A program made the translations under genes and the position numbers. 64,000 nt of DNA from an uncultured Candidatus Saccharibacteria bacterium (lineage in GTDB: Bacteria > Patescibacteriota > Minisyncoccia > Phycocordibacterales > UBA9973), in the NCBI GenBank assembly GCA_964606295.1, contig CAZSFR010000001.1:56504-120503 (forward strand), written 5' to 3'. Shown here piece after piece: positions 9,513 through 64,000 of the stretch. The notes beneath the pieces are model-generated. The model was not told the origin of the DNA and did no database searches. It worked only from the letters and a program-made list of their open reading frames with translations. Position 1 is the stretch's first letter, and every line of letters begins with the position of its first letter.

Positions 9513-9541
9513 GCGCCCCGTCGCAATGTTGAAAACTAAGT

Positions 9542-9613
9542 GCGTGTGGAAAGAATCGAACTTTCGGCCTCTGTCTTATCAGGACAGCGTTCTACCACTG
9601 AACTACACACGCA
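9542..9613 (-). tRNA. tRNA-Ile (anticodon GAU). No encoded CCA.
   Basis: Hand-folded cloverleaf. Acceptor stem GCGUGUG/CACACGC with 7 of 7 bp, D-arm GUUC…GAAC, anticodon stem CUGUC/GACAG with loop CUGAUAA, 5-nt variable region, T-arm GAAAG-UUCGAUU-CUUUC, discriminator A. Confidence 0.8.
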
Positions 9614-47994: not shown

Positions 47995-48468
47995 ATGTAC
48001 AGAGAGTTTGGTAACGTTTCAATAAAAAGAGAGACATATGGTAAGCTCCCCAGCTTGCCATATTTTTCTATTAAAAATAAAGTCCTTGGAAAAAAATATG
48101 AGCTTTCGATTCTTTTTGCCACTCCCCAAAATGCTCAAAAGCTAAATCATCTCTATAGAAAGAAATCATACACACCCAATATTCTTTCTTTCTCACTTAA
48201 TAAAAGTTCTGGTGAACTTGTTCTGTGTCTCGGTACAATCCGCTCCCAAGCAAAAAGTTTTGAGATGTCATACCAAGATTTTCTCTCATACCTCTATATT
48301 CATGGTCTTTTGCATTTGAAAGGAATCGAACATGGTAGTACAATGGAGAGAGAGGAAAACGCCATCTTCAAAAAGTTTTTTGGCGACGATCTACCACATG
48401 GCACGAACCATACTCACAGGCATCGACATAGGAACATCTCACACTCGCGTCGTCATCGTCGAGTATAA
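47995..48468 (+). CDS. ybeY: rRNA maturation endoribonuclease YbeY.
   Basis: Zinc-binding motif HGLLHLKGIEH (H-x3-H-x5-H). Confidence 0.75.
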   Translation: MYREFGNVSIKRETYGKLPSLPYFSIKNKVLGKKYELSILFATPQNAQKLNHLYRKKSYTPNILSFSLNKSSGELVLCLGTIRSQAKSFEMSYQDFLSYLYIHGLLHLKGIEHGSTMEREENAIFKKFFGDDLPHGTNHTHRHRHRNISHSRRHRRV

Positions 48469-49564
48469 AAAAAACGACTCAGAGCCAACACTTATCGGTG
48501 CTGGTATCGCTCTTTCTGGTGGTGTGCGAAAAGGCTACATCGTCAATTCCAACCTCGCGATTGCATCTGTCCGTGACGCAGTATCACAAGCTGAAAAGCA
48601 GGCCGGTATCAAGATCAAGAAAGCATCTCTTTCTGTTGGTGGCATCGGTCTATCGACAGATACTGCGATTGGTACAGCTACTTCCACACGTGTCGACAAC
48701 ACAATCACAGAACTCGATGTTGAAAGGACAATGCGGGCATGCGAAGAAGCGCTGAAAGATAGGAACAAAAAGGTTGTTCATCGTATCCCTCTGGCGTACA
48801 AATTGGATGCAAAGCCTGTCCTCGGTGACCCTGTCGGTATGAAAGGAAAAAAACTCGAAGGAAAGGCTCTTTTTATTACTTGTTTGTCTCAACACATTGA
48901 ACGACTCGTCGAAACAGTGACTACGGCTGGTATCGAAGTAACAAGCATCATTGCTTCTCCTGTTGCAGTCGCAACAGTTGTACTCAATGAACGAGAGAAA
49001 ATCGCAGGCTCAATGCTCGCACACATAGGCGCAGAAACCGTCGGTACTGTCGTTTATGAAGATGGAAATATCCTTTCTCTCTCAATGATTCAGATTGGCT
49101 CTGCAGATATTACCAACGATATTGCTCTTGGTCTCAAAACATCTTTAGAGGAGGCGGAAGGAATCAAAGTAGGAACAGTCATATCAAGCACGTCAAAGAA
49201 GAAAATAGACGAGATCATTGAAGCACGACTGACAGATATTTTCGAATTAATAGAAAAGCATTTGAAGAAAATCGGACGCAGTGCACTCTTACCTGCCGGC
49301 ATTATATTTACTGGAGGTGGTTCACATCTTGGAAATTTGACTGACCTAGCAAAGCGCGAGCTCAAACTTCCCTCACGGATTGGTTTTATAAACGAGAGAT
49401 TTGATGGCAAGATGAAACTCAAAGATTCTGCATGGTTCCCCGCATATGGTTCATGTGTCTGCGAACACTCGTCGCCTTTTCCAGACGATGAATCTCGTGT
49501 TCCTCCATCAGATGGCGCTTTCAAAGAAACTTTCTTGGGATTTCTAAGACAATTGCTCCCATAA
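48398..49564 (+). CDS. ftsA: Cell division protein FtsA. Start is at MARTILTGIDIGTSH.
   Basis: Actin-fold phosphate motifs (GIDIGTSHTRVV…, …FTGGGSHL…). Sits immediately upstream of ftsZ. Confidence 0.8.
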   Translation: MARTILTGIDIGTSHTRVVIVEYKKNDSEPTLIGAGIALSGGVRKGYIVNSNLAIASVRDAVSQAEKQAGIKIKKASLSVGGIGLSTDTAIGTATSTRVDNTITELDVERTMRACEEALKDRNKKVVHRIPLAYKLDAKPVLGDPVGMKGKKLEGKALFITCLSQHIERLVETVTTAGIEVTSIIASPVAVATVVLNEREKIAGSMLAHIGAETVGTVVYEDGNILSLSMIQIGSADITNDIALGLKTSLEEAEGIKVGTVISSTSKKKIDEIIEARLTDIFELIEKHLKKIGRSALLPAGIIFTGGGSHLGNLTDLAKRELKLPSRIGFINERFDGKMKLKDSAWFPAYGSCVCEHSSPFPDDESRVPPSDGAFKETFLGFLRQLLP

Positions 49565-49740
49565 TAAAATATCCTCAACCTACAGTGGAAAGAGGCATCG
49601 CGCAAGCAGTTTTTTCTTACAAGTGAAGGCAATCGAAATCAAGCCGTGACTACTTTCCTTTTTTTTAGTTTCTGGTATTATGGTATCCGTAATTTAACGG
49701 CCGAAACTTAACCCAATCTATTAATTAGCCCAACACATAT

Positions 49741-50916
49741 ATGCCAAAAGTCAATCCTACTATCGAATCTTTCGCTCGTATCAAAGTTATCGGAATCGGT
49801 GGCTCTGGCAAAAACGCCTTGAACCACATGATCAACTCCAAAGTTCGTGGAGTTGAATTCATCGCAATGAATACCGACACACAGGATTTGCACAATTCAC
49901 TTGCAGAGAAAAAGATTCACATTGGCAAGAATCTTACCAAAGGACTCGGCGCAGGGATGAACCCTGAAATCGGTCGCAAAGCTGCTGAGGAAACAAAAAC
50001 AGAAATCCAAGACGTTATCAAAGGTGGCGAGATGGTATTCATAGCATGTGGTATGGGTGGAGGTACGGGTACGGGAGCAGCGCCTACAGTTGCTCGAGCA
50101 GCAAAAGAAAGCGGTGTACTCACTGTAGGTGTTGTCACAAAACCATTTTCATTTGAAGGACGCGAGAGAATGCGTCTAGCAGAAGAAGGTCTTGCCGAAT
50201 TAGAAAAAGAGGTTGACGCAATCATTATAATTCCGAACGACAGACTGCTCTCAATCACAAGTAAAGAAACAAGTTTGAAAAATGCTTTCTCAATGTGCGA
50301 CGAAGTCTTGCGACAAGCCGTCGAAGGAATCTCTGACTTGATTACAATTCCTGGTGACATCAACGTAGACTTCAACGATATCAAAACAATTATGGCAAAT
50401 GCTGGAACAGCACTCATGGGTATCGGTACGGCGACGGGAGACAAGCGAGCAGAAAAATCTGCATTTGATGCAATCAACTCTCCCCTTCTTGAAGTTTCTA
50501 TAAATGGAGCAAAAGGTATCCTGCTTTCGATTGCAGGTGGAGATGATCTCACTCTACATGAAGTTGCTGAGGCTGCGAAGATAGTTACGGAATCTGCAGA
50601 TAAGGACGCAAAAGTCATATTCGGTACATGCAAAGACGAACGTCTCAAGAAGGGAGAGATGAAAGTCACTGTCATCGCTACTGGCTTCCCTACCGCAAGT
50701 GGATCCGTTCAAAAGAAGTCACTTTTTGAAAAGCCAATTATTTCTGCTTCAACGTCACATCTAGAGGAGCGCAAGGAAATTCACAACACTCTTCCTGATG
50801 CAAATTTGGAAAAAAGAATAGCAACGGCTGAAATCATCGAAGACGATTCACTTTTGGGAGGTGACGATACAGACGATTGGAGCGCAGTTCCTGCATTCTT
50901 GCGAAGAAAGAAATAA
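49741..50916 (+). CDS. ftsZ: Cell division GTPase FtsZ.
   Basis: Tubulin signature GGGTGTGAAP, T7 loop, and overall FtsZ similarity. Confidence 0.95.
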   Translation: MPKVNPTIESFARIKVIGIGGSGKNALNHMINSKVRGVEFIAMNTDTQDLHNSLAEKKIHIGKNLTKGLGAGMNPEIGRKAAEETKTEIQDVIKGGEMVFIACGMGGGTGTGAAPTVARAAKESGVLTVGVVTKPFSFEGRERMRLAEEGLAELEKEVDAIIIIPNDRLLSITSKETSLKNAFSMCDEVLRQAVEGISDLITIPGDINVDFNDIKTIMANAGTALMGIGTATGDKRAEKSAFDAINSPLLEVSINGAKGILLSIAGGDDLTLHEVAEAAKIVTESADKDAKVIFGTCKDERLKKGEMKVTVIATGFPTASGSVQKKSLFEKPIISASTSHLEERKEIHNTLPDANLEKRIATAEIIEDDSLLGGDDTDDWSAVPAFLRRKK

Positions 50917-50968
50917 GTTTACTCACAAAAGGCCTCGATTTTCCGAGGCTTTTGTTTTGTGTTATGAT

Positions 50969-51916
50969 ATGACAACTATGGAACAAACAACCTACGATCT
51001 CATCATCATCGGCGGAGGGCCTGCAGGTGCTGCAGGCGCTGTCTATGCGTCACGCAAGAGACTAAAAACTCTTCTTATTACATATACTTTTGGTGGACAA
51101 TCCACTGATTCGTCTGACATCCAAAACTGGATCGGAACACCATCTATTTCAGGTGCTGACCTTGGCAAATCCCTTGAGACTCATATCAAAGCTTATGCAG
51201 ACGATGTCCTCACTATCGTCGAGGGAGAGAACGTGACAAAAGTAAAAGGAATTGAAAATTCATTCACTGTCTCAACTGATGCAGGTAAAGAGTATGAGGG
51301 AAAAACTATCCTTGTCACATCAGGTTCAGGCCGTAGAAAACTCGCAATACCTGGAGCAGACGTACTCGAACACAAAGGTATTACCTACTGCGCGTCATGC
51401 GACGGACTTTTGTTTCAAGGTATGGATGTCGCTGTCATAGGAGGAGGCAATGCAGGATTTGAAACTGCAGCACAACTTCTTGCCTATACCAAGAGCGTGA
51501 CTCTTTTCAATCGCGCGGATACTTTCAAGGCGGACGAAATCACTGTGGAGAAAGTTCTTTCTCATCCCTACATGACAGCTCTCAAAAATGTAGATTTGGT
51601 GTCAGTTGAGGGAGACAAGTTTGTATCTGGTTTGAAATACAAGGATATGACAACAAATGAGGAGAAACTTCTCCCTGTGCAAGGCATTTTTGTCGAAATC
51701 GGCCAGATTCCAAATACAGCTCTTGTAAAGGATTTTTTAACTCTCGATCAATACGGAAAAGTAGTAACCGATCCTATGACCCAAAGAACCTCAGTCAAGG
51801 GCGTATGGGCTGCAGGAGACTGCACAGACGGACTCTATCACCAAAACAACATCGCCGCTGGCGATGCTGTAAAAGCGCTTGAGGATATCTATCTCTATAT
51901 CCACGCAGGTAAATAA
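50969..51916 (+). CDS. trxB: Thioredoxin-reductase-like FAD/NAD(P) oxidoreductase. Start is at MTTMEQ.
   Basis: GGGPAG FAD motif, redox-active CASCDG, and a second dinucleotide motif GGGNAG. Confidence 0.7.
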   Translation: MTTMEQTTYDLIIIGGGPAGAAGAVYASRKRLKTLLITYTFGGQSTDSSDIQNWIGTPSISGADLGKSLETHIKAYADDVLTIVEGENVTKVKGIENSFTVSTDAGKEYEGKTILVTSGSGRRKLAIPGADVLEHKGITYCASCDGLLFQGMDVAVIGGGNAGFETAAQLLAYTKSVTLFNRADTFKADEITVEKVLSHPYMTALKNVDLVSVEGDKFVSGLKYKDMTTNEEKLLPVQGIFVEIGQIPNTALVKDFLTLDQYGKVVTDPMTQRTSVKGVWAAGDCTDGLYHQNNIAAGDAVKALEDIYLYIHAGK

Positions 51917-53677
51917 CTACTTTATCTTCTTATCAACATCATCGATTTCCTTTTCTATGATGTTTCCTGCTACGGACAGATCATTTCTCAATTTTGTTAG
52001 GAATGCTTGCTCATGTACTGAAAGAGGTTCTCCTGCTCTTACTTTTTTCAAGATTTCAATCTCATCTACTACTTCTTGATCAATAATCTTCATAGATTGA
52101 GCTGTAACTTCTTTTGCTTGCCCAACTTGAATGTGTAGCATTTTTTTATATTTTCTCCATCCTCTCAGTATAAGAATCCCAATCACAAATAAAAGTAGCA
52201 CTGCAATCAGTATTGGTATAATCGGTAGTATAATCCTCAAAGCCATATTCATAAATTTACCGAACACTCCTGGTAACACGGAGACGGAATAACTTTCTGT
52301 GAGAGTACTCTCAGCTCCGTTGTCCAAACGTGCTTTTGCAACAAAGTGATACTCACCGACTTTCCAGGCAGTTTTCATTGTGAAGTCGAAAGTACCATTC
52401 GGGTTGACTTTGACAATATTTTCATCACTTATTTTATTTTTACTGAATATTCTACCAATCCATGTTTCATTTTCCTTTTTGAAGTCAAATACTACATACG
52501 AATTTGCTATCGCAGTACCACTTGCTCTGAACACCGTGCCTCCATCAAGCTCTTGAGTGTAACTCAGTATAACCGGGACGCTAATTCCCTCGTATGTAAA
52601 ATAAACAACATTCACAATGTCATTTCCTGCATAATCATTGGCTCTTACAACCAACTGATGTTGGCCAAGAGAAAGCACCCCCGTGCTGTAAAGTGATTCT
52701 TCCGTTGTTTTCTGCCATATTACAGGATTCGAAGCATCTATACTTATTTCATAATTCTCTATACCAGACGTTGCATCAGTAGCGTTTAGTAAAAAATGTG
52801 TCGAGCCATCTTCGGGTTCTTTTTCGACTTTCGTAATGGTAAAATCACTTGGCTTCGTCTTATCGACATTAATTTTGAAATGCGTCGTCCCCCCCCAGCC
52901 GTAGCTATTTTTTAGTCTCAAGTGAAAGTACCACGTACCGTCTGTTATCTCTGCACTGGTATATGAAGAAGTTAATCCTTTGTCTTGCGTTGGAGTAGTT
53001 GTCGCATTTTTGTCGAGAACAAAGCTAACTGAGGTAGCATCAGTAGGGACTTGCCACTCAAACTGAGGCACAGATATCGCAAACCAGTCATTTGGGTCTG
53101 GGTGCGTTGGAGAGGTCACCAGAGGAGGTAGTGGAGAATTTGTTCCGGACATCGACGGTGTTGTGACTATTCCACCGCTTTGACCAATCGTGACAATAGA
53201 TTTTGGCAGTGAACCAGAGAGTATGTTGGTACCCTCCCCGTCGTTTGCCAGTATAGATGCTTGAGTCAATTCAAATGTAGCAATACCTGTACCTTCCGTC
53301 TTCCAACTAACTGTAAAAAGTTTGCCTCCAGTACCACTGAAACCAGGATTCAAAACCAATCCTTCAAATCTAACAGCCCCTGCTTCACTCGAAGGTTGTA
53401 TTGTCCAGAAATTTACAATGGTTCCGGATGTATTTATAGTTGGCGCACTCAACAAATTTGTTGGGTAATAGATACGTCCAGAAAAAGCATTTATGGCTTG
53501 ACTGGTACTGGATACTGAAACCGTCAATGTGATTGTCTCTCCTGTGTCTATGTTTGCTGTAGCAGGACTCACAGAGAATGTAGCTGCTTCAACGCCATGA
53601 AACGATACAGCAAAGAAGGCCGTTACAACAAGGAATTTCAATACAAATTGTTTGAAGTTTATAGAATAAAAATGCAT
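51917..53677 (-). CDS. Surface protein: signal peptide, N-terminal cohesin-like domain, Ig-like middle region, C-terminal TM anchor and cytoplasmic tail.
   Basis: ATFSVSPATANIDTGETITLTVSVSS…AINAFSGRIYYPTNLL…GKLFTVSWKTEGTGIATFEL follows the cohesin pattern. C-terminal TM LRIILPIIPILIAVLLLFVIGILIL. Confidence 0.5.
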   Translation of the reverse strand: MHFYSINFKQFVLKFLVVTAFFAVSFHGVEAATFSVSPATANIDTGETITLTVSVSSTSQAINAFSGRIYYPTNLLSAPTINTSGTIVNFWTIQPSSEAGAVRFEGLVLNPGFSGTGGKLFTVSWKTEGTGIATFELTQASILANDGEGTNILSGSLPKSIVTIGQSGGIVTTPSMSGTNSPLPPLVTSPTHPDPNDWFAISVPQFEWQVPTDATSVSFVLDKNATTTPTQDKGLTSSYTSAEITDGTWYFHLRLKNSYGWGGTTHFKINVDKTKPSDFTITKVEKEPEDGSTHFLLNATDATSGIENYEISIDASNPVIWQKTTEESLYSTGVLSLGQHQLVVRANDYAGNDIVNVVYFTYEGISVPVILSYTQELDGGTVFRASGTAIANSYVVFDFKKENETWIGRIFSKNKISDENIVKVNPNGTFDFTMKTAWKVGEYHFVAKARLDNGAESTLTESYSVSVLPGVFGKFMNMALRIILPIIPILIAVLLLFVIGILILRGWRKYKKMLHIQVGQAKEVTAQSMKIIDQEVVDEIEILKKVRAGEPLSVHEQAFLTKLRNDLSVAGNIIEKEIDDVDKKIK

Positions 53678-53689
53678 TTTAGAACTCTC

Positions 53690-54601
53690 TTATTGTACCT
53701 TTATTTTCTTAAATTTTCTAGGAACGAAGAAGATAACAAATGCAAAAATAGCAGTAACTATGAGAAGTGGTATCACCAAAATCGATACCGGAAAAAATTG
53801 CTCAGAATGTATTTGGGCTATACGTACGTTGCCAGCATTATCAATGGCCTTTACGCGTACTAGCGACCTCATAGATTGATCCTCTAGAAGATACGGGCTT
53901 TCTGCAACTTTCCAATCAGAATTGCCCTCCTTTACCTCAAAACGACTAATCCCAGACTCTTTGTCAGTTGTAGAAAATATCAAAAAATATTTTCCATCAA
54001 AAATGTATTGATTACTGGATATTTGTGGATAGAAAACCAAAGGTCTTTCAATGTCACTCGCGAAATTAGTACCGACTTCGCCCGTTTCGGAGGAAATCAC
54101 CCTAAATGGATATAGCAAAGTGGGAGCTTTGGTGCCAAGCCCATCATTAAAATACGCTTGCCCTGTTGTAAGGTACAACTCGGATGTAGAAATGGACTTT
54201 GTGGTAAAAATTGCAGAAAATAGTTTACCATCGAGATATGTCTGGTCTAGTGGGTTGATCGTGCCTCCAAATCCTCCAACCATTATCCCTGAAAATTTGA
54301 CACTCGATCCATTTGCTTTTGGTCTCTCAATCCACGAGGTAACAACAGAACTACCATCTCTAATACCAACCAACTCCAAGTGTTCATCGTCAAAAACCAA
54401 CTCTCCCTCGACTGCATTTATCAATTCTTCACTGGAATTTATAAAGACAGTGACTTCAAATTCAGCATTCGCTAGTACGGGGAATTTTTGATCTGATTGA
54501 AAGTAAATAGTCGCAGCATTAGCTTGCTTGTGTCCCAGAAAAAGCATGCTAAGAGTCACGAGGAGAATAAAAGTACATTTTTTTGAAAATAAATTGATCA
54601 T
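53690..54601 (-). CDS. Surface protein with an N-terminal cohesin-like domain and a C-terminal TM anchor.
   Basis: ATIYFQSDQKFPVLANAEFEVTVFINSSEELINAVEGELVFDDEHLELVGIRDGS… is a cohesin-like block. C-terminal TM plus KFKK tail. Confidence 0.5.
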   Translation of the reverse strand: MINLFSKKCTFILLVTLSMLFLGHKQANAATIYFQSDQKFPVLANAEFEVTVFINSSEELINAVEGELVFDDEHLELVGIRDGSSVVTSWIERPKANGSSVKFSGIMVGGFGGTINPLDQTYLDGKLFSAIFTTKSISTSELYLTTGQAYFNDGLGTKAPTLLYPFRVISSETGEVGTNFASDIERPLVFYPQISSNQYIFDGKYFLIFSTTDKESGISRFEVKEGNSDWKVAESPYLLEDQSMRSLVRVKAIDNAGNVRIAQIHSEQFFPVSILVIPLLIVTAIFAFVIFFVPRKFKKIKVQ

Positions 54602-54606
54602 ATGAT

Positions 54607-55545
54607 TTATCCAGTCCAGTAATATGCCAATATAGAGAAATCGACAAGCGTAATACGGCCATCTCCTGACAAATCTAGTTCAAGTGGCGCTCCCAATCTC
54701 CCGTACCAATACGCCAATATAGAAAAGTCTGTGATATTCACTCTGCAGTCTCCTGTGAAGTCTCCTTTTGGCGGACAACCTGAATTTAGAACAGTCTCAT
54801 TACCAACAGTAAATCCAACTATACTAGAATAAGATGTTACTTCTGCTCCGAGTGTTGACAACGACCTTGTGCTATGTGAGCCAAGTTCCAATACACCCGT
54901 ATTGAACCTATAGAGATATGCACCATAGTCGTCAGATGTCGTAGACAAAAAATACGGAACCAATGAATTAACATTGATAGTTATCGAAGCGTTTGGTGCA
55001 CTTTCCCCGAGTATAGTGATCGTTTCTCCTTTTGCAACAACAGTCTTATCGATAGATATAGTAGGGGCAATATAGATACCAGAAATAGTAGTCGATATAT
55101 TTTCTGTTACTACAATAGGAAATGTGAAGAGTGTTGACCTTCTCTCTTCACTATCCTCAGCCAAAACAGAAAACGTATACGAACCAGCTGGTAAATCAGA
55201 GATTGTTAGTGTAAATTTTGCATCAAGTCCAGCTGTAGTTTGTGCAATCTCAACTCCGTCTTGCAAAAATATTACTGCGGAGAAGGGATAAGCTCTGCCG
55301 GAGAACGTGACAGATGAATCTCCATCGTTCTGACCTCCTCCACCACCGCCCCCACCACCTCCTGCTCCTCCAGGATCGCCCACAGCAACAGTTGCAGTTA
55401 TGGTGACGTCTTCACTTACAGCACCCAACTCTCTTGGAGTTGAATCGTAAAAGATTCCTACTCCGAGAATGATAATTACAGATAAAATGCACCTGAATGA
55501 TTTATATAAATCATTCTTACTAAACTTTAGGAGTGGAAGTTTCAT
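54607..55545 (-). CDS. Secreted protein with a poly-Gly run (GGAGGGGGGGGGGQ), Ig-like domains and a C-terminal type-I-like dockerin (two Ca-binding repeats).
   Basis: C-terminus GDFTGDCRVNITDFSILAYWYG…DLSGDGRITLVDFSILAYYW is two D-x-x-G-D-x-x-V/I-N/T-x-x-D-F-x-x-L repeats. Confidence 0.55.
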   Translation of the reverse strand: MKLPLLKFSKNDLYKSFRCILSVIIILGVGIFYDSTPRELGAVSEDVTITATVAVGDPGGAGGGGGGGGGGQNDGDSSVTFSGRAYPFSAVIFLQDGVEIAQTTAGLDAKFTLTISDLPAGSYTFSVLAEDSEERRSTLFTFPIVVTENISTTISGIYIAPTISIDKTVVAKGETITILGESAPNASITINVNSLVPYFLSTTSDDYGAYLYRFNTGVLELGSHSTRSLSTLGAEVTSYSSIVGFTVGNETVLNSGCPPKGDFTGDCRVNITDFSILAYWYGRLGAPLELDLSGDGRITLVDFSILAYYWTG

Positions 55546-56566
55546 TCATTTCTTTCTTTAGCTCCTCCTTAATCTCAGAGCGCAATGACTCCTTCAAATT
55601 TCTTCGATAATGCGTCTTTGCACGCTTCATAATATTTATAAACAAGAACAATCCAACTACTATAACAATAAGAAGGTGCCAAGGCACTACAAAAAATCCA
55701 GTTTTTGCAGTTGATGTCTGGTCACTTTCAGCTCCGTACGCTAGCGATATATTTGCAGTATAGTATCCGAAAGCAAAATTCTTCCATTCATACACAACTT
55801 TTTTGAAAAATCCTAGATTTTCAATATTTGCAACATCACTTGATCCTCTGCTTGATTGCCAAGTAGCTTCAAATCTTCTTGTCTGTGATGGTAATACGTT
55901 ACCTTGAGCGGAGTTTGCAAGAACTTTTGCCCTCACAAAACCAAACATATGTCTGATGACTATATCTCCATCTGGCTTTATCCTATCTCCGCCTGAATTT
56001 TGGAATCTGTAATAAAAAGAAACCGGGAGTGCAGTAAAAAAATTCTTATTGTCAATTGTGCCGTATTCAATAATACCTCCTTCTTCATCTACATCTCCGT
56101 TTACACGGAGCAACACCAAAACACCAGTTTTTGCACCAATTGCTATAGATCCTTCCCCGCTAACTTCAGGATTATTTGTACCCCAAAATACTGCAGCGAA
56201 ATACCCACCAGGCTCAGCTATTTCTGGTATATCGATTGTGACTGGAACTATCTTACTTGTGCCAGGTGCAAGTATTACCATGGAGTCTGTTTGCATCCAT
56301 GTTCCCAGCCCATCTACAGGAGTTACGAAACTTGGACTTCCCGTCTCCCCTTGTGCTTCAAAGTTTGAGAATGAAGAGTAAAATGTTTGACTTGTGTCTC
56401 TATCGTTTATAAGTGTAATCTCACTTTCAATAGTAGCTCCAGGGTCTCCGCTTAATTCTATGAGAACTGGCGTAAGTGTCAGAGCGTGCGCTTTGCTGAC
56501 AAAACTAGATGAAAAAATTATGACTGAGCAAAGTATAACCGCTAGTGTTGTTATTTTTTTTTGCAT
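55520..56566 (-). CDS. Bitopic surface protein: signal peptide, about 260-aa beta-rich ectodomain, C-terminal TM, basic cytoplasmic tail. The architecture is reminiscent of DUF916/DUF3324 proteins from Gram-positive WxL/Csc surface loci.
   Basis: Signal MQKKITTLAVILCSVIIFSSSFVSKAHA, TM FFVVPWHLLIVIVVGLFLFINIM, tail KRAKTHYRRNLKE… The gene begins with an A9 homopolymer. Confidence 0.45.
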   Translation of the reverse strand: MQKKITTLAVILCSVIIFSSSFVSKAHALTLTPVLIELSGDPGATIESEITLINDRDTSQTFYSSFSNFEAQGETGSPSFVTPVDGLGTWMQTDSMVILAPGTSKIVPVTIDIPEIAEPGGYFAAVFWGTNNPEVSGEGSIAIGAKTGVLVLLRVNGDVDEEGGIIEYGTIDNKNFFTALPVSFYYRFQNSGGDRIKPDGDIVIRHMFGFVRAKVLANSAQGNVLPSQTRRFEATWQSSRGSSDVANIENLGFFKKVVYEWKNFAFGYYTANISLAYGAESDQTSTAKTGFFVVPWHLLIVIVVGLFLFINIMKRAKTHYRRNLKESLRSEIKEELKKEMNETSTPKV

Positions 56567-56579
56567 TATATTTTATGTA

Positions 56580-57677
56580 TTAGAAATTCCCCGTCGCTAT
56601 ATATGTAACATCTGTCGAGTATGAACCCGCTTCTGTTGTTGTCGCGATGTTTGCGATGTATTGAACGTCGATTGTTTCAGTTGCAGTAGCTATTGTTTCA
56701 GATGCGATGGTGGTTGTAGTGCCGGCAACAAACGCGTAGCTATTTGTTCCCGCAAGTTCGTATGCGGATGCTATCGTCACGTTACCTCCGTTATCGTCGA
56801 TACCTAGAGCAAACTGCTCTGATGCTGGGGTGCCGTCTGCGTCTGATGCAATAGTCGCTACGTTTATAGTGTTCGCTCCACTTGTGAGAGTGGCACCGAA
56901 GTATGTGATCGAGTATCCAGATGCAGCGTTTGTGGCAATAGTCATTTCGTGCGCCCCAGTTGTATCACCTGGTAGAACTCCTGTACCAGTTGCATCTGCT
57001 GTCGCATATCGTGCAGCGGTTGCATCGAGAGCTCCGAACCCTATCGCTACGTCAGATATTGTGAAAGTGATTGTTGGGCTCACCGTTGCAGTGATGTTGA
57101 CTGAGTCGTCTGCGATGATGTCGATAGCGATTGTTCCTGTGTCTCCGAATCCACCAGTGAACACGATAGTGTCGTCGTCATCAGCCGAACCGTTGGTTAC
57201 CGTACTCGCTGAACCTGTCGCACCAGTCGTCGCTGCTGTACCCCAGACAAGGCGCATACAGAATCCTGCTGTTAGGGTCTGATCTGTTTCTGGTGAAAGA
57301 GTAATTACATTACCCGTTACGTCCACTCCCCAGTCTGTAGCTGATGCAGTAGTAGCAACTACTTCATCTGTATATACAGCAGATGAACATGTTGCACTAT
57401 CTCCTAACTCGACGTCAAAATTGTTTACGTCTTCAGCTGCAAGAGTAAAGTCTGCACTGAAAGTAAGTATGATAGTATCACCTCCCACTTGGATACCTGT
57501 CGGGGTGGCAAATTGAACTGTTCCAGAACTGTTTGCTGTTGAAGCTTCTATTCTCCCTAGTGTTGCTGTCGCATTGGTCACCGAGGCAGCCATAGCCTTG
57601 CTTGGGAGCAGAGTTATAATTCCAGTTGCAGTGACGATAAATACAAAAACAAAAAGAGATGTTGCGAATTTTTTCAT
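56580..57677 (-). CDS. Secreted Thr/Ala/Gly-rich protein (365 aa), paralog A. Sec signal with A-M-A cleavage site. Conserved C-terminal ~170-aa domain ending in …SYSTDVTYIATGNF.
   Basis: Signal MKKFATSLFVFVFIVTATGIITLLPSKAMA|ASVT. The 3' 480 bp are identical to paralog B. Confidence 0.6.
   Translation of the reverse strand: MKKFATSLFVFVFIVTATGIITLLPSKAMAASVTNATATLGRIEASTANSSGTVQFATPTGIQVGGDTIILTFSADFTLAAEDVNNFDVELGDSATCSSAVYTDEVVATTASATDWGVDVTGNVITLSPETDQTLTAGFCMRLVWGTAATTGATGSASTVTNGSADDDDTIVFTGGFGDTGTIAIDIIADDSVNITATVSPTITFTISDVAIGFGALDATAARYATADATGTGVLPGDTTGAHEMTIATNAASGYSITYFGATLTSGANTINVATIASDADGTPASEQFALGIDDNGGNVTIASAYELAGTNSYAFVAGTTTTIASETIATATETIDVQYIANIATTTEAGSYSTDVTYIATGNF
56590..57070. 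repeat. About 480-bp segment 100 % identical to 57820-58300: the shared 3' halves of the two tandem paralog genes.
   Basis: Direct comparison of the two stretches. The plus-strand shadow ORFs 56830.. and 58060.. share identical first 77 residues. Confidence 0.8.
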
Positions 57678-57809
57678 AATCTTAGTAAGGACGTATTATC
57701 TATTATTTTATATGGATATATTATAACATTTTTACTAAAAATTGCCTCGCACATCGTCTGTGGATAACTTATCTGAACAGCTCAACCCCAGAAACAGAAT
57801 CAATCTATA

Positions 57810-58910
57810 TTAGAAATTACCAGTTGCTATATATGTAACATCTGTCGAGTATGAACCCGCTTCTGTTGTTGTCGCGATGTTTGCGATGTATTGAACGTCG
57901 ATTGTTTCAGTTGCAGTAGCTATTGTTTCAGATGCGATGGTGGTTGTAGTGCCGGCAACAAACGCGTAGCTATTTGTTCCCGCAAGTTCGTATGCGGATG
58001 CTATCGTCACGTTACCTCCGTTATCGTCGATACCTAGAGCAAACTGCTCTGATGCTGGGGTGCCGTCTGCGTCTGATGCAATAGTCGCTACGTTTATAGT
58101 GTTCGCTCCACTTGTGAGAGTGGCACCGAAGTATGTGATCGAGTATCCAGATGCAGCGTTTGTGGCAATAGTCATTTCGTGCGCCCCAGTTGTATCACCT
58201 GGTAGAACTCCTGTACCAGTTGCATCTGCTGTCGCATATCGTGCAGCGGTTGCATCGAGAGCTCCGAACCCTATCGCTACGTCAGATATAGAAAAGGTGA
58301 TTGTTGGGCTCACGGTTGCAGTGATGTTGACTGAGTCGTCCGTTATGATATCTATTGCGATAGTTCCTGTGTCTCCGAATCCACCAGTTATTGCAACGGA
58401 ATCATCATCATCTGCTCCACCGTTTGCCATAGTACTGGCTGAACCCGTACCTCCAGTTGTTGCAGCTGTACCCCAGACGAGACGCATACAGAATCCTGCA
58501 GTGAGGGTTTCGTCTGTGTCTGGCGAAAGAGTAAGGACATCCCCTGTGACATCTATTCCCCATTCCGTTCCAGAAGCATTAAGAGCAACTGTTTTATCGG
58601 TATAAACTGCAGTAGAGCACGTTGCACTGTCGCCGAGCTCTATATCAAAGTTTACCGCGGATTCTCCAACGAGTACGAAATCAGAACTAAAAGTAAGTAT
58701 GATTGTATCTGCGCCTCCTGTTTGAATGCCTGTCGGAGTCGCAAATTGAATAGTACCGGAATCGTTTGCACCTGTAGCTTCTATTCGTCCGAGTGTTGCA
58801 CTCGCGCTGGTCACCGAGGCAGCCATAGCCTTGCTTGGAAGCAAAGAAATAGCTCCGGTCGCTGTGACAATGAAGACAAGTACAAAAAGGGATGTTGCGA
58901 ATTTTTTCAT
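57810..58910 (-). CDS. Secreted Thr/Ala/Gly-rich protein (366 aa), paralog B. Tandem duplicate of paralog A with a diverged N-terminal half. Start is MKKFATSLFV at 58910.
   Basis: Same signal peptide and C-terminal domain as paralog A. Its upstream intergenic region is also related to that of paralog A. Confidence 0.6.
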   Translation of the reverse strand: MKKFATSLFVLVFIVTATGAISLLPSKAMAASVTSASATLGRIEATGANDSGTIQFATPTGIQTGGADTIILTFSSDFVLVGESAVNFDIELGDSATCSTAVYTDKTVALNASGTEWGIDVTGDVLTLSPDTDETLTAGFCMRLVWGTAATTGGTGSASTMANGGADDDDSVAITGGFGDTGTIAIDIITDDSVNITATVSPTITFSISDVAIGFGALDATAARYATADATGTGVLPGDTTGAHEMTIATNAASGYSITYFGATLTSGANTINVATIASDADGTPASEQFALGIDDNGGNVTIASAYELAGTNSYAFVAGTTTTIASETIATATETIDVQYIANIATTTEAGSYSTDVTYIATGNF

Positions 58911-59024
58911 AATCTTGATTAAGAGCACTTTCTCTATTAGTTTATGTATATTTATTATAGCACTTTTACAGAAAATCGTTATGCGGAACTTCTGTGGAAA
59001 GTTGATATGCATATCTCGCATTTA

Positions 59025-62000
59025 CTAAAAATTCCCCGTCATTATATATGTCAGATCTGTGGAGTATGTTCCAAATTCTGTGCCTGCCGCCATATTTGCA
59101 AGATACCGAATTGAATACGTAGTACTAAATCCATCTCCCTCTGTTTGAGTTGCAAAGGTATCGGCTGTAGTCGTGCCAGCATAGCCAAATCCTGCTCCAC
59201 TGTAAGTCGCATCAACTGCATCATAATAAGATACCCCAGAGAGGCTAGCACGGGCGCCGAATTGTTCGGTGCCTGTACTCGAAGCTGTATTTGTAGAGCC
59301 TATCTCATCTATTGTATCGCCTCCACTCGTCAAAGTATTTCCCGAAACTGTTATTGTATAACCTCCAGACGCACTCGTTGATCCGGTCATAGTATGCGCT
59401 TCTACTTCTGATGCGCTTCCCGTTGTATCGTCTGTCGCATACCTAGCAAGAGATGCGTCAAGTGATCCAAATCCAATAGTCGTATCAGATATCGCAAAAG
59501 AAATAGTTCTATCTTCTGGCTCAACCCACTGGATGCCTATCATCGCAAAGTCCCATTGGTTTACAGAATTACTAGCTGCGCCACCATCGACAGAAGTTCG
59601 AAGTCGATACCATGCCTCATCCCCTCCAGTGCTCACCAAATCTTCTGGATTTGTCATATAGCCGGCCATACCTCCAGAGGTATTTGTGGCCACTGTTATA
59701 TTGTCGGTATATACGAGGGCGGTAGTCGCCGACGCACCGAGTGCAATAAATCCTCCGATCGTAGCGGCAGCCGTGTTGTACCCCGAATAGTCCGCAATAC
59801 CGAGAGCAACTGTGCCGGCAACACCAGATAAAAATGAACTCGCAAAAAATATTCCTGTGATAGATCCATATGTTGGCTCTCCCATACTAAACTTCGTATG
59901 TGTTCCTGCCCCTTCTTCGTTGATTGTCGCGTCCATATCGACATCGAATGCATAGAAATCAAAAGCTGCGCCAGTCCCCCTGTTTGTAGATTCATTTTCA
60001 GTTGTTATCGTCCAAGCTGTTCCGTTATTTGTTGCACCTTCCAAGTTTACCGTACGCGTGGCAGTACAGTCATTTGTCGCAACTGTTCCAAACGATATAA
60101 AACACTTTGTTGCCCCATCATCAGAATTGGTTGTACCGAACATGAGATATGCCATGTCTATCTGTATCGCACCTGTGTCTGCTCCTGACGAGCGATAGAA
60201 TCGGAGCCTCGCTTCCCCTTCTGATACATAATCATCCATGGTGATGTTGTTTACCGCTCCAATACGGAACGTATCTGTCGTCGAACAAGATGCGATCTCA
60301 TTAATGATGTTCACCCACGCAGCTGTCGTAAAGTTATAAAGCGCCATTCTCACTTCCAGCGCAGTGCCTCCTACGGAACATGCAAATTCTGCGCGAGCAA
60401 GTATGGTATTCATACCAGGATACGTTTTTACATTTTTATACGATATATAACAATCGGGACCTCCAGTGGTACCGAGACACTGCAGGTCTATATTGTTCGA
60501 ACCCGCCTGCGTGACCGTATTTGCATTGGTGTAGTCGCCAGTAAAACTATTTGTAAGTGCTACAGCACCTGCTGGCTCATAGACTGGATTGATAACAGGA
60601 AAAATGCGCAGATAGTCAATCGCGAAGTTGCCCGCAGTTGTAGCGTTGGTCGTTGAATAATATCTAAAAAGGACACGCTTGTTCGCATCGGTTGTGACAA
60701 AATTGGTAAGTGGAGTGGAGATCGCTGTGTTTGAACCATTGGACCATTTGCCGTCATACACATTCCACGTATATGCTGTCGCTGTCGTTGGTGAAATAGT
60801 GGCGTCGCGTGAATTGAGTGTTCTCCACCCGCCTCCGGTGCAGTTTGCATCGGCCACATGGTCGACACTCGTCGTCGAAATCCAATCGCATATTTGTACC
60901 AACAGCACAGGTGCGGTCACGTCGGTGTCTATCTCTGACTGGACGATAATAGTATTCGCACCATTGAGCTTCACTCCATCGAGTTTTAGTTGGACATCAA
61001 TACCCGATGCTGTACCAGTAAGTTCCCAGTGTCTGTTGTCGTCTGCTGTTGTTCCTTTCCATGAACCGGTATTGGCACCGTTTGCTCCTGCTGCGATAAT
61101 ATTGTTTGCAGTAGTATCTGTTCCCGTAACGAGTGTTTGACCTGTAGGTATAAATGCATGGGTGACAGTTGGGTTGTAAGAATCCTCAACCCACTGTATC
61201 GATAGCATCACGAAATCCCACGCAGTTGTAGAGTTATCTGTCGTAGCACCTGAAGTAGATGTACGCAGGCGCATGTTCATAATGCCATCCACTGTATCGA
61301 CATAATTTTCTGGATTTAGTTGGAGTCCGTAGGCCAGTGCGCCCGTCGCAGACAGCGTATCTTGAAATGTTTGTGTCGTTGCGTTAACAGCAGAACCGAC
61401 ATCAGTCCAGCCACCAGTAATAGAAGTGAAACCAGAATAATCGTTAATACCATTTATCACTTGAGTTGTACCGATACTTCGAGATGTAGTACGACTAGCC
61501 CAATTGATACCAACAACTTGCGCATTTGCTGGCACGGTTATTGGTACTGATACATTTGCGGACACACCCTCTTCGGCTGTCACGTCTTGATCTGTGTCGA
61601 ACGGGTAAAATGAATTTGCTTCACCTGTTCCCATCGCTGCGGATTCGTCCTCGCCTGCGATATCGAACGACGTCGTAGATCCGTTTGTATCCATTCCGCG
61701 AGTATTCGTGCAGTTTGTCGCAGTTCCAGTTCCAAAAGAAATCTCACAGAGCGATGAGTCAGCGTTTACAGAGCCGAGCATTATGTACTGCCAGTCCAAT
61801 AGAATACCGTTGGTAATAGCAGAGGTACTTGCCCATCTGATACGAATCTCTCCATCTGAAATAAAGTCATTGAGAACAAATCCAGCATCCGAAACTGTGT
61901 TGTGTGCAATATAGTAACTCGTGTCCGTCGTTGAGCAGGTGATGTTCGCAGAGCCGAGTGCATCCCACGTTGACGTCGTGAAATCATAAATATAGGGCCT

Positions 62001-63032
62001 GATAGTTGGGGTACCGCTGTTGCAACTCACGGATGATGCGAGCATGATAGTGTTCATGCCAGTATATTGCTTCACATTTTTATATGACAAATAAAAATCA
62101 ACAACTTGAGAACTCGCGGCTACTCCCACACGGATGTTGTCGTTTGTGCCTACCGTCGTCACTGATGTAGCATTGTTTACCAGCGGAATCGAGTTTACAT
62201 ACACACCCACTTCTGCCCCGTCACCAGATACTTGATCGACATAATCCGCTGCATAATACACAGAATCTATATATGCAAATACGGTAAGGTAATCAATCGA
62301 TACAACAGATGTGGTATTTGTCGTTGAATAAAATCGGATTTTCAATTCACTGCTACTGTTTACAAAATTCGTAAGTGGAGTGTCGATAGGAGTGCCTGCA
62401 TCAGATGTTCCGTTAGAAAAAACACCATCGTATATTTGCCAGCGCAACTGGTCGTTTGCTGTATCTGTATACGCAACATCAGCATTGGCAGCTGTTTGTG
62501 TATTGATAGTACGCCATCCACCAGTTGTACAATTTGCATCTGCTACATTGTCGACGTTTGTCGAAGAAGTGAAGTCGCAGATCTGGAAAACCATACTAGG
62601 AACTGTCGCATCAAGGTCTATCTCAAGGCCTATATCTATTTTATTGGCACCATTTAGATTTACCCCTCCGACGGTCGTCACCAGTGAAATACCAGAGGCC
62701 GTAGAGGCAACAGTCCAATGAAAACTATCGTTACCTTGCATAGCTTGATATGAGCCGAGATTTGTACCTTCGACTGCTGCGATCGTCGCTGATGTCACTA
62801 TCTGTTCAGTACCCGTTTCCACAGTGGTAGCAGTAGGGAAAAATTGATACGTCGCAGCATCTGCTTTTGGGATATCTCGTACAATTTCTTTGCTCGAAGC
62901 AACACGAGAAAGTATTATCTCTGGAATACCACTGACTAAAAACAAAACTATCAAAACAAAAGATACAACTTTTTGAAATTCAATTGCACTTAGAGATTTC
63001 CTTATTTTATTTTTTAAAATTATAAAAAACAT
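59025..63032 (-). CDS. Giant (1335-aa) surface protein. It has an N-terminal signal/anchor, two ~500-aa internal tandem repeats with conserved Cys pairs, and a C-terminal ~170-aa domain homologous to paralogs A and B (…FGTYSTDLTYIMTGNF).
   Basis: Repeat blocks ICDFTSSTNVDNVADANCTTGGWRTIN / ICDWISTTSVDHVADANCTGGGWRTLN, LSYKNVKQYTGMNTIML / ISYKNVKTYPGMNTILA, WDFVMLSIQWVE / WDFAMIGIQWVE. Confidence 0.6.
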   Translation of the reverse strand: MFFIILKNKIRKSLSAIEFQKVVSFVLIVLFLVSGIPEIILSRVASSKEIVRDIPKADAATYQFFPTATTVETGTEQIVTSATIAAVEGTNLGSYQAMQGNDSFHWTVASTASGISLVTTVGGVNLNGANKIDIGLEIDLDATVPSMVFQICDFTSSTNVDNVADANCTTGGWRTINTQTAANADVAYTDTANDQLRWQIYDGVFSNGTSDAGTPIDTPLTNFVNSSSELKIRFYSTTNTTSVVSIDYLTVFAYIDSVYYAADYVDQVSGDGAEVGVYVNSIPLVNNATSVTTVGTNDNIRVGVAASSQVVDFYLSYKNVKQYTGMNTIMLASSVSCNSGTPTIRPYIYDFTTSTWDALGSANITCSTTDTSYYIAHNTVSDAGFVLNDFISDGEIRIRWASTSAITNGILLDWQYIMLGSVNADSSLCEISFGTGTATNCTNTRGMDTNGSTTSFDIAGEDESAAMGTGEANSFYPFDTDQDVTAEEGVSANVSVPITVPANAQVVGINWASRTTSRSIGTTQVINGINDYSGFTSITGGWTDVGSAVNATTQTFQDTLSATGALAYGLQLNPENYVDTVDGIMNMRLRTSTSGATTDNSTTAWDFVMLSIQWVEDSYNPTVTHAFIPTGQTLVTGTDTTANNIIAAGANGANTGSWKGTTADDNRHWELTGTASGIDVQLKLDGVKLNGANTIIVQSEIDTDVTAPVLLVQICDWISTTSVDHVADANCTGGGWRTLNSRDATISPTTATAYTWNVYDGKWSNGSNTAISTPLTNFVTTDANKRVLFRYYSTTNATTAGNFAIDYLRIFPVINPVYEPAGAVALTNSFTGDYTNANTVTQAGSNNIDLQCLGTTGGPDCYISYKNVKTYPGMNTILARAEFACSVGGTALEVRMALYNFTTAAWVNIINEIASCSTTDTFRIGAVNNITMDDYVSEGEARLRFYRSSGADTGAIQIDMAYLMFGTTNSDDGATKCFISFGTVATNDCTATRTVNLEGATNNGTAWTITTENESTNRGTGAAFDFYAFDVDMDATINEEGAGTHTKFSMGEPTYGSITGIFFASSFLSGVAGTVALGIADYSGYNTAAATIGGFIALGASATTALVYTDNITVATNTSGGMAGYMTNPEDLVSTGGDEAWYRLRTSVDGGAASNSVNQWDFAMIGIQWVEPEDRTISFAISDTTIGFGSLDASLARYATDDTTGSASEVEAHTMTGSTSASGGYTITVSGNTLTSGGDTIDEIGSTNTASSTGTEQFGARASLSGVSYYDAVDATYSGAGFGYAGTTTADTFATQTEGDGFSTTYSIRYLANMAAGTEFGTYSTDLTYIMTGNF

Positions 63033-63033
63033 T

Positions 63034-64000
63034 TTATTGTGTCAAAATATCTACGACTTCGAGTTGTTCATCATTTTTAATATCTTCATTGGCAGTAGTG
63101 TCAGTTTTCAATTGATTGAGCGCTTCTTCTTCCGCTATTTTCTCTTCGAGAGGGGTAACAATTTCAAGATTTGCTGGATCGATTGCAATCTCACTTACAT
63201 CTCCGTTTGGTTCCAAATATTTTACTTCAGATTCTAGAGAAGTACTAATACTTTGTGACGACATCCCTCCAGAAGCAGTATTGTATTGATTTATCGCAGT
63301 CTTATCTCGTGAAAGCCAGAAAATAATCGTGCCTGAAACATCAACAGGTGTTGCAATGTCTACAGTATCGCCTGATGCAACAAAATTCCATTCTAGTCCT
63401 TTTGCTCGTTCGGCTTGTATTTGTTCATCAGTATAGATTATAGGTATTACTCCAGGAACTATTTCTTCGGTAGTTGTAATAATAGGAATATTTTCATCGT
63501 CAAAATATTGTGTAGACTGCGGAATATTTTCATTTACAAAATTATTTATGATAATCACCCCTTCACCTGGTGTCGGCACAGAATCAAAATCAGACTGCGT
63601 ATTCTCTTCATTTATTTCTTGATCTTCAGAAGGAACTTCTTCATCAATATTCAAATCAAGTGACGATGATTCCGGATCTATATCAGTATTAGTATCAGTG
63701 TTGGCCTCAACCTCAGGCTCAGTAGAAGAATCCGAAGTGACACTGACTTCATCACCAGATGAGGACGAATCAGAAGTATCACCGCTCGTTTCAGTTGCTC
63801 CCTCTTCGGCATAGACTGGATGTAATCCAAATAATGATTTTATTTTATTTAAAACAGTCACTTCATTTGTCGAAGGTGTCACTATATCTTCTGTCACTGG
63901 AACCTCTTCTATGATTGGAGTAGGATCTTCTGTTATCGGATCCTCTTCTACGGCTGGGGCCGGATCTTCTGTCGTAACAGGAACATCTATCAAAATGTCT
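63034..64000 (-). CDS. Partial CDS (5' end beyond the window): extremely acidic, Thr/Glu/Asp/Pro-rich repetitive protein. Probably part of the same surface locus.
   Basis: The ORF continues in frame past position 64000. Sequence EDPAPAVEEDPITEDPTPIIEEVPVTED… is low complexity. Confidence 0.45.
   Translation of the reverse strand, partial: DILIDVPVTTEDPAPAVEEDPITEDPTPIIEEVPVTEDIVTPSTNEVTVLNKIKSLFGLHPVYAEEGATETSGDTSDSSSSGDEVSVTSDSSTEPEVEANTDTNTDIDPESSSLDLNIDEEVPSEDQEINEENTQSDFDSVPTPGEGVIIINNFVNENIPQSTQYFDDENIPIITTTEEIVPGVIPIIYTDEQIQAERAKGLEWNFVASGDTVDIATPVDVSGTIIFWLSRDKTAINQYNTASGGMSSQSISTSLESEVKYLEPNGDVSEIAIDPANLEIVTPLEEKIAEEEALNQLKTDTTANEDIKNDEQLEVVDILTQ

Follow-up and report, generated by a model that had tools for sequence, protein, structure and literature searches.

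A minus-strand locus with Pam pilin domains

A 64,000-nucleotide (nt) stretch of DNA from an uncultured Candidatus Saccharibacteria bacterium (GenBank assembly GCA_964606295.1, contig CAZSFR010000001.1), referred to here in its full length as the window, ends in a run of genes for surface proteins. Eight consecutive open reading frames (ORFs) lie on its minus strand (genes A to H; Table 1), exactly where a preliminary description of this DNA had placed them. That description had also held that the locus encodes only secreted or anchored proteins, which stands in so far as every complete product carries an N-terminal hydrophobic segment, the N-terminus of H lying outside the window; A, B and D have an additional C-terminal hydrophobic helix. 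Our analysis indicates that the locus is probably a Parcubacteria-type Pam pilus operon, encoding an usher-less donor-strand fibre that would be anchored through cohesin and dockerin modules.

The C-terminal domain common to E, F and G is the Pam pilin domain. The NCBIfam (release 20) model NF058581, named CPR_Pam_pilin_C after the candidate phyla radiation (CPR) and with a curated cut-off of 55 bits, matches E at 70.4 bits, F at 69.7 bits and G at 62.5 bits, in the last case at residues 1205-1335, and a Pfam scan of the three proteins gave no match. The same model matches 46 of 72 orthologous pilins (best E=1e-36) and the C-termini of 42 of 56 tip-class proteins (best E=2e-40), and E, F and G also give weak matches to the PamT model NF058579. 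This places a domain that the preliminary description could assign to no family, and through NF058581 the locus is half assigned to an already characterised system. The domain is indeed free of tryptophan and terminates in TGNF, as noted earlier; the similarity between E and G is longer than the approximately 170 residues first given (E77-365 against G1085-1335, 34% identity), and the spacing in the shared motif is nine residues (YI-x9-GxYSTD) rather than six. Across the family the consensus end is LTYIATGTF, that is, TG(T/N)F, TGNF being a local variant. E and F are 89% identical. The two repeats of G share 38.6% identity over 555 residues (E=1e-102) and have no match in Pfam, the PDB or PHROGs; nothing useful came from searching PDB sequences with E, with D, with the N-terminal part of G or with a pilin profile, and a PHROGs search with A, E, G and H returned nothing.

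The Pam pilus was described in 2026, with a membrane-anchored PapD-like chaperone, so that the system is not undescribed as first supposed. In Candidatus Mycosynbacter amalyticus, a parasite of the Saccharimonadia, cryo-electron microscopy (cryo-EM) revealed filaments of the two-domain pilins PamA and PamB, in which a C-terminal truncated immunoglobulin (Ig) domain accepts the linker strand of a neighbouring pilin; linker and groove are the most conserved parts of the pilins (Troman et al., bioRxiv 10.64898/2026.03.03.709456). The pam operon also encodes two PapD/FimC-like chaperones, PamC and PamD, each with a C-terminal transmembrane (TM) helix, and no usher, together with PamE, an acceptor-only tip protein, PamT, and PamR, which consists of an N-terminal strand, two fibronectin type III domains and a TM helix and was proposed to terminate and anchor the fibre (10.64898/2026.03.03.709456).

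Relatives of the locus were collected by a scan with the alignment of D over one genome per GTDB species, which gave 80 loci (numbered with the prefix L where one must be singled out), and all ORFs of these loci were searched iteratively with hidden Markov models (HMMs). The two domains of the pilins are joined by a sequence of the form DD-x-V-x-(V/I)-(T/S)-A-(T/S)-V, followed directly by the first strand of the C-terminal domain, (P/S)TITF-x-ISD..IGFG. The alternating hydrophobic residues of this linker form the pattern expected of an inserted β-strand. Few residues of the protein are as conserved: in 72 pilins V193 does not vary, and conservation of A197 and V199 is at least 90%, in agreement with the high conservation described for the donated linker of the Pam pilins. 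Of 89 pilins, 80 carry the motif V-x-I-x-A-x-V, which has a background rate of 0.35 per 1000 residues, at the boundary of the domains; of 57 tip-class proteins, none does. Tip-class proteins, G included (…QWVEPEDRTISFAISD…), keep the second strand and are missing the first.

The same motif occurs within the first 130 residues of 70 of 76 dockerin proteins, the counterparts of C, against 0.045 expected per protein. It lies a few residues past the signal peptide, that is, at the mature N-terminus, and is followed by poly-Gly in 53 of these proteins and by a small Cys-rich module in some others; A51 and V53 of C are invariant in 62 orthologues. The six dockerin proteins without the motif comprise ORF fragments, masked sequence, one variant (SVSIQAIV followed by poly-Gly) and the protein of L020. 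The last of these (L020:4991-6355) is a hybrid of a pilin N-terminal domain, DNDQVTISATV, poly-Gly, Ig domains and a dockerin, which is to say a pilin with a dockerin plug in place of the acceptor domain. Conversely, in a Staskawiczbacteria locus in which no dockerin or cohesin gene was found, the gene after D (L042:10964-11959) encodes a single protein that opens with a signal peptide and VNINATV and continues through a Cys-rich module and an Ig domain to a C-terminal TM helix, a fused, PamR-like form of the anchor. The fused and hybrid architectures link strand, spacer and membrane anchor with one another. On the strength of these sequence patterns, we propose that the strands of E, F and C are donor strands.

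That the ORFs are real genes follows from the many database homologues of D (more than 630), B (95) and E (572), nearly all of which are unnamed proteins from Nomurabacteria, Paceibacterota or the 'Patescibacteria group'. For F, the mechanical ORF extends to 59021, beyond the start at 58910 (MKKFATS), and this start is supported by the homology of the regions upstream of E and F. The genes are closely packed, with gaps of 12 nt between A and B, 5 nt between B and C, -26 nt between C and D, 13 nt between D and E and 1 nt between H and G, the wider spacings being 132 nt before E and 114 nt before F. Promoter and terminator scans of the locus performed no better than on shuffled sequence, so that transcription units were judged on gene spacing alone.

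The two shaft pilin genes differ in how their halves compare. The 3' 464 nt of E (56596-57059) are 100% identical at the DNA level to 57826-58289 of F, the 5' halves are just approximately 75-80% identical, and the upstream regions of approximately 150 nt are homologous. The identical 3' ends suggest that the acceptor domain has undergone gene conversion or evolved in concert; they could equally stem from a partial duplication of recent date or from a collapse in the assembly.

Table 1 Genes of the locus and their parts, in coordinates of the window
Feature	Positions	Strand	Size or residues	Description
Gene A	51917-53677	minus	586 aa	Long membrane anchor: signal peptide, cohesin module, Big_13 and OmpL47-type barrel Ig-like domains, TM helix (aa ~475-508), then ~75-aa cytoplasmic helical tail
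A cohesin module	53123-53590	minus	aa ~30-185
Gene B	53690-54601	minus	303 aa	Short membrane anchor: signal peptide, cohesin module, small β-barrel (aa ~190-265), TM helix (aa ~267-297)
B cohesin module	54077-54520	minus	aa ~28-175
Gene C	54607-55545	minus	312 aa	Proposed terminator/adaptor: signal peptide, donor-like strand, poly-Gly linker, Ig domains (Big_6), C-terminal dockerin
C N-terminal strand	55387-55407	minus	aa 47-53	VTITATV
C Gly-rich linker	55318-55386	minus	aa 54-76	Directly after the strand
C dockerin	54610-54768	minus	aa 260-312	Ca-loop and helix repeats GDFTGDCRVNITDFSILAYWY and DLSGDGRITLVDFSILAYYW
Gene D	55520-56566	minus	348 aa	Membrane-tethered PapD/WxLIP-like chaperone: signal peptide, two β-sandwich domains (aa ~28-293), TM helix (aa ~294-320), short basic cytoplasmic helix
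Gene E	56580-57677	minus	365 aa	Shaft pilin: signal peptide, N-terminal domain, linker strand, Pam C-terminal domain
E linker strand	57081-57101	minus	aa 193-199	VNITATV, between N- and C-terminal domains
E C-terminal acceptor domain	56583-57080	minus	aa 200-365	W-free, ends TYIATGNF
Gene F	57810-58910	minus	366 aa	Shaft pilin paralogue, domains as in E
F linker strand	58311-58331	minus	aa 194-200	VNITATV
Gene G	59025-63032	minus	1335 aa	Proposed tip subunit: N-terminal hydrophobic segment, two ~530-aa repeats, Pam pilin domain
G repeat 1	61185-62780	minus	aa 85-616	Fold unassigned; presumed adhesin or host-binding part
G repeat 2	59520-61091	minus	aa 648-1171
G acceptor domain	59028-59510	minus	aa ~1175-1335	From RTISFAISD..IGFG to TYIMTGNF
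Gene H	63034-64000 (window end)	minus	3' part only, N-terminus beyond the window	Acidic, low-complexity

Dockerin, cohesin and chaperone-like proteins

The dockerin of C consists of a duplicated EF-hand-like calcium loop (D-x-N/D-x-D...D), each copy followed by a helix. Dockerin_1 (PF00404) was found in 57 of 62 C orthologues at E<=0.01 (best 1.5e-8) and Big_6 in 54 of the 62, both loop and helix repeats are strongly conserved in the family (consensus D.n.D..vNl.DFSi and vDln.D..i.LvDFSIlA), and C was aligned to the solved dockerin PDB 2y3n_B with E=0.008. The two-repeat dockerin recognized in the preliminary description is thus genuine, and its cohesin modules on the membrane anchors A and B are likewise supported: Cohesin (PF00963) matches 10 of 48 B homologues (best 5.5e-7), and A and B are homologous in their N-terminal modules (E=3e-11). 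In its predicted structure B has the cohesin β-sandwich fold, the cohesins taken for comparison being those of C. perfringens (2vo8), A. fulgidus (2xdh) and the C. thermocellum OlpA and OlpC complexes. A scores 157.6 bits with the family cohesin HMM, and its Big_13 domain scores 29.4 bits. A search of the 64-kb window located cohesin, dockerin and the pilin C-terminal domain in A, B, C, E, F and G and nowhere else.

A charged, helical tail follows the TM helix of A (51917-52150, residues ~509-586), and in L052 and L065 the long cohesin proteins close with similar tails (…AELAIIHKAK…KEIWDIE…). This hints at an intracellular partner or at regulation.

The protein encoded by D is bitopic. An AlphaFold2 model built from 47 homologues (predicted local distance difference test score 86.5) has two β-sandwich domains and a long C-terminal helix, and its best match by Foldseek is WxLIP, including the WxLIP-WxL complex 9i25 (E=4.7e-11), followed by CfaA (7.4e-9) and then CsuC; the chaperones FimC, SafB, CupB2 and PapD of chaperone-usher systems are also matched. 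WxLIP is the DUF916-DUF3324-TM protein of the WxL clusters of Firmicutes (PDB 9i1y, 9i25), and its partner is predicted to receive a hairpin strand from it (Hassan et al. 2023, PMC10599100). The architectural analogy with WxL loci that had been drawn from the sequence was therefore accurate: D has the two tandem Ig-like domains and C-terminal TM helix of WxLIP. Its fold is equally that of a PapD-like chaperone; it ends in a TM helix, as do PamC and PamD, and its gene shares an operon with those of the pilins.

In sequence, D has no match in Pfam or NCBIfam, including PapD_N and PapD_C, and none to DUF916 or DUF3324 at E<=1, and in the PDB the D family profile reaches WxLIP1 at no better than a non-significant E=0.37. 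The family itself is large, with 9815 representatives at 50% identity (E<=1e-3), and is matched by no Pfam or NCBIfam model. As far as the predicted fold is a guide, the likeness between D and WxLIP (9i1y, 9i25) suggests a deep link between the WxL clusters of Firmicutes and CPR pili, and hints that WxL clusters and Pam pili arose from one ancestral strand-complementation system of monoderms.

A six-gene cassette and its surroundings

Most of the 80 loci come from genomes titled Nomurabacteria, Paceibacterota or Parcubacteria. A six-gene cassette recurs in approximately 75 of the 80 species-level genomes in the order tip, pilin(s), D, dockerin protein, cohesin-TM protein, cohesin-TM protein. 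The first gene belongs to the tip class in 63 loci, with products of 249-2636 residues and unrelated N-terminal parts; one to three pilins of approximately 360 residues follow, and in 77 loci such a pilin gene stands directly upstream of the chaperone gene. The dockerin and Ig protein and the first cohesin-TM protein both measure approximately 300 residues, and the second cohesin-TM protein, variable in size, follows in 75 loci. Between successive genes of the stretch that begins with the pilin and ends with the second cohesin protein, the median gaps are 15, -8, 3 and -4 nt, values suggestive of translational coupling; between tip and pilin genes the median is 81 nt.

Around the cassette the gene content changes. 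Across the 80 loci no conserved flanking genes were found, the ATP synthase neighbourhood of Saccharimonadia type among them; the flanks hold housekeeping genes, and even the commonest neighbours (gyrB, thrS, nusB-NUDIX and an SBP gene) do not exceed 18 of 80 loci. Since the order within the cassette is kept and the flanks vary, the six genes form an autonomous, co-inherited unit. There was no Pfam or NCBIfam match to an usher among the eight products, and no additional conserved cassette gene.

An atypical locus, L072:8757-13196, encodes two proteins with the pilin C-terminal domain, each followed by a D-type chaperone of its own. Its surroundings yielded no dockerin or cohesin genes, and the arrangement is nearer to the published two-chaperone pam layout.

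The tips themselves fall into several exchangeable classes, because a small subfamily of approximately 330 residues, recurring in many loci (for example L041, L043, L044, L047 and L056), has no relationship to the repeats in the N-terminal part of G. Members of this subfamily carry a conserved Cys motif, NC(T/S)GYDTT…AYT.K(V/I)CA, just ahead of the acceptor domain.

Gene H has no match in Pfam, NCBIfam or PHROGs. Its homologues in L009 (1103-3646, 847 residues) and L081 (2661-4385, 574 residues) have an N-terminal hydrophobic segment, and they were seen only upstream of G-like tip genes. H is thus possibly an accessory protein of the tip, although whether it belongs to the system is uncertain.

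In L008, L035, L050, L074, L083 and many genomes labelled 'uncultured Candidatus Saccharibacteria', the cassette is 45-78% identical to that of the window. Labels of metagenome-assembled genomes such as Pseudomonadales, Gammaproteobacteria and Saccharibacteria evidently conflict with a cassette of Parcubacteria type and look unreliable.

Directly downstream of the locus, on the other strand (48332-51916), lie ftsA-like, ftsZ-like and thioredoxin-reductase-like ORFs. The sole RNA gene in the window is a tRNA-Ile(GAT) at 9540-9612.

A proposed anchored fibre, its alternatives and known systems

The identity of the locus as a pilus operon is well supported, and we hold it to be very likely; the earlier guess that it builds a fibre is borne out to this extent. 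Such a fibre would be built on the outer face of the cytoplasmic membrane, from products that, judging by their N-terminal hydrophobic segments, are all exported by Sec. By its fold and by analogy with the Pam model, D would cap the open groove in the C-terminal domain of freshly exported subunits. G, an acceptor with no donor strand, would initiate the fibre, its large, duplicated and lineage-variable N-terminal part presumably binding the host, and E and F would each put their V-x-I-x-A-x-V strand into the groove of the previous subunit. C, whose mature N-terminus bears this strand ahead of poly-Gly and which has no acceptor domain, would then halt polymerisation; its dockerin would plug in a calcium-dependent manner into the cohesins of B, A or both and so fasten the base of the fibre to the cell. 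The polymer would thus have an acceptor-only end (G) and a donor-only end (C) connected to the membrane, and C with the A and B anchors would together do the job of the single transmembrane PamR in Ca. Mycosynbacter amalyticus. We incline, by a narrow measure, towards cohesin-dockerin anchoring of the pilus. The chances are even, in our estimate, that the terminator donates its pilin-type strand to the last pilin while its dockerin plugs into the membrane cohesins, forming a non-covalent socket at the pilus base.

Several observations weigh against this reading. Strand donation and cohesin-dockerin pairing are proposed from the distribution of a motif and from analogy, and pilin and dockerin-protein strands are no more alike within a locus than between loci (3.85 against 3.83 of 7 positions), so that they do not covary. 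At the level of individual domains, C scores 21.7 bits with Dockerin_1 (E=2.3e-4), 1.2 short of the 22.9 cut-off; A and B themselves have no PF00963 match at E<=1 and miss the gathering threshold; and the PamT equivalog model NF058579 reaches 31.8 bits against its cut-off of 240. The D sequence has no significant match to WxLIP or to pilus chaperones, and in its predicted structure D appears at least as near to WxLIP, which is non-filamentous, as to the latter. The presence of two cohesin anchors for a single dockerin is unexplained, and a filament has so far been unobserved in any Parcubacteria with the cassette.

Some of these observations would also suit a locus in which a Pam-type pilus is co-transcribed with an independent surface scaffold, the cohesins displaying C or other dockerin proteins and the fibre being terminated or anchored otherwise, or shed. 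Two cohesins per dockerin and the lack of strand covariation are compatible with such an arrangement, and the Pam pili of M. amalyticus are easily untethered. We nevertheless consider it unlikely, since it leaves the pilin-type strand of 70 of 76 dockerin proteins without a role and sits poorly with the fused protein of L042 and the hybrid of L020, in which strand, Ig spacer and anchor are joined. It is also at odds with genes that overlap the chaperone gene or lie within a few nt of it, and with a 64-kb window that holds no further dockerin or cohesin to be displayed.

The likeness of D to WxLIP, and the predicted insertion of a β-hairpin by WxLIP into its partner, raise a second alternative: a non-polymeric surface complex akin to those of WxL/Csc clusters, in which D would hold E, F and G singly by strand complementation and the cohesin-dockerin pair would add display sites. 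It corresponds to the cell-surface complex envisaged in the preliminary description. As in WxL clusters, the operon contains small and large proteins with a common C-terminal domain. Yet this domain belongs to NF058581, the founding members of which form filaments seen by cryo-EM, and a donor-type strand that is kept in pilins and missing from tips fits a capped polymer rather than one-to-one display. Furthermore, the locus has no WxL motifs, no Pfam match to DUF916, DUF3324 or WxL and no LPXTG protein. We regard this alternative as improbable, and membership of the WxL systems proper was rejected on the absence of tryptophan from the shared domain and of Pfam matches. Finally, an S-layer-like or other two-dimensional coat of E, F and G anchored by the cohesins, a reading entertained in the preliminary description, found no support and is highly improbable, for although the products look abundant, Thr/Ala/Gly-rich and secreted and 9 of 47 D-family members match 'putative S-layer protein' (NF033506), these matches are weak (best E=7e-4) and fall on the D family rather than the pilins, the pilin domain family forms filaments, and an asymmetry of tip, shaft and terminator would be meaningless for a lattice.

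Parcubacteria (Paceibacteria) make up the largest part of the CPR and are almost entirely uncultivated, and we know of no established mode by which they attach to a host. A cassette found in dozens of species, with a chaperone family of thousands of clusters, points to a common surface fibre that has gone unannotated, with the variable tip protein as a candidate determinant of host specificity. Should the proposed model be true, it would define the main host-contact fibre of Parcubacteria, take the protein-protein plug of the cellulosome into pilus biology and give the widespread non-cellulosomal cohesin-dockerin modules of CPR bacteria their first assigned role. It would also supply an annotation rule for thousands of 'hypothetical proteins', in which tip, shaft and terminator are distinguished by the presence or absence of one strand.

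Cellulosomes are anchored by SLH domains or by sortase. The anchors described here use a C-terminal TM helix instead, the dockerin belongs to a partner with a strand of pilin type, and the genes form part of a pilus operon; a cellulosome-like enzyme scaffold was rejected, as the cassette has neither enzymes nor carbohydrate-binding modules. Classical chaperone-usher membership was likewise rejected for the lack of an usher: compared with the Pap, Fim, CFA/I and Csu pili, there is no outer membrane, the chaperone is membrane-tethered, and the presumed donor strand lies inside the protein, where one domain gives way to the next, whereas theirs is an N-terminal extension. WxL/Csc clusters differ in that the partner domain here is free of tryptophan and thus of W-x-L motifs, that no LPXTG protein is encoded, and that WxL complexes have no known polymerisation.

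The Pam pilus is the system to which the locus was most closely compared. It differs in having two chaperone genes where a single one is found here, and in a single-domain PamT where the tip here has 1335 residues and a duplicated module. The window has no PamR-type protein; it has instead a protein of strand, poly-Gly, Ig domains and dockerin and two cohesin-TM proteins, and the locus comes from the Parcubacteria group rather than from the classes highlighted for Pam. Cohesin, dockerin and Paceibacteria are all unmentioned by Troman et al. (10.64898/2026.03.03.709456), and full-text literature searches returned no paper connecting dockerin or donor strands with Parcubacteria, so that the coupling of a Pam-type pilus cassette to a cohesin-dockerin pair is apparently undescribed. 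In other respects the two are alike: both have pilins with a C-terminal domain of the same family (NF058581, above cut-off) and a PapD-like chaperone with a C-terminal TM helix and no usher, in a CPR host. Judged by sequence, the pilins here would also have two domains joined by a highly conserved strand, as in Pam, the tip class would be acceptor-only, and the products are presumably all exported by Sec.

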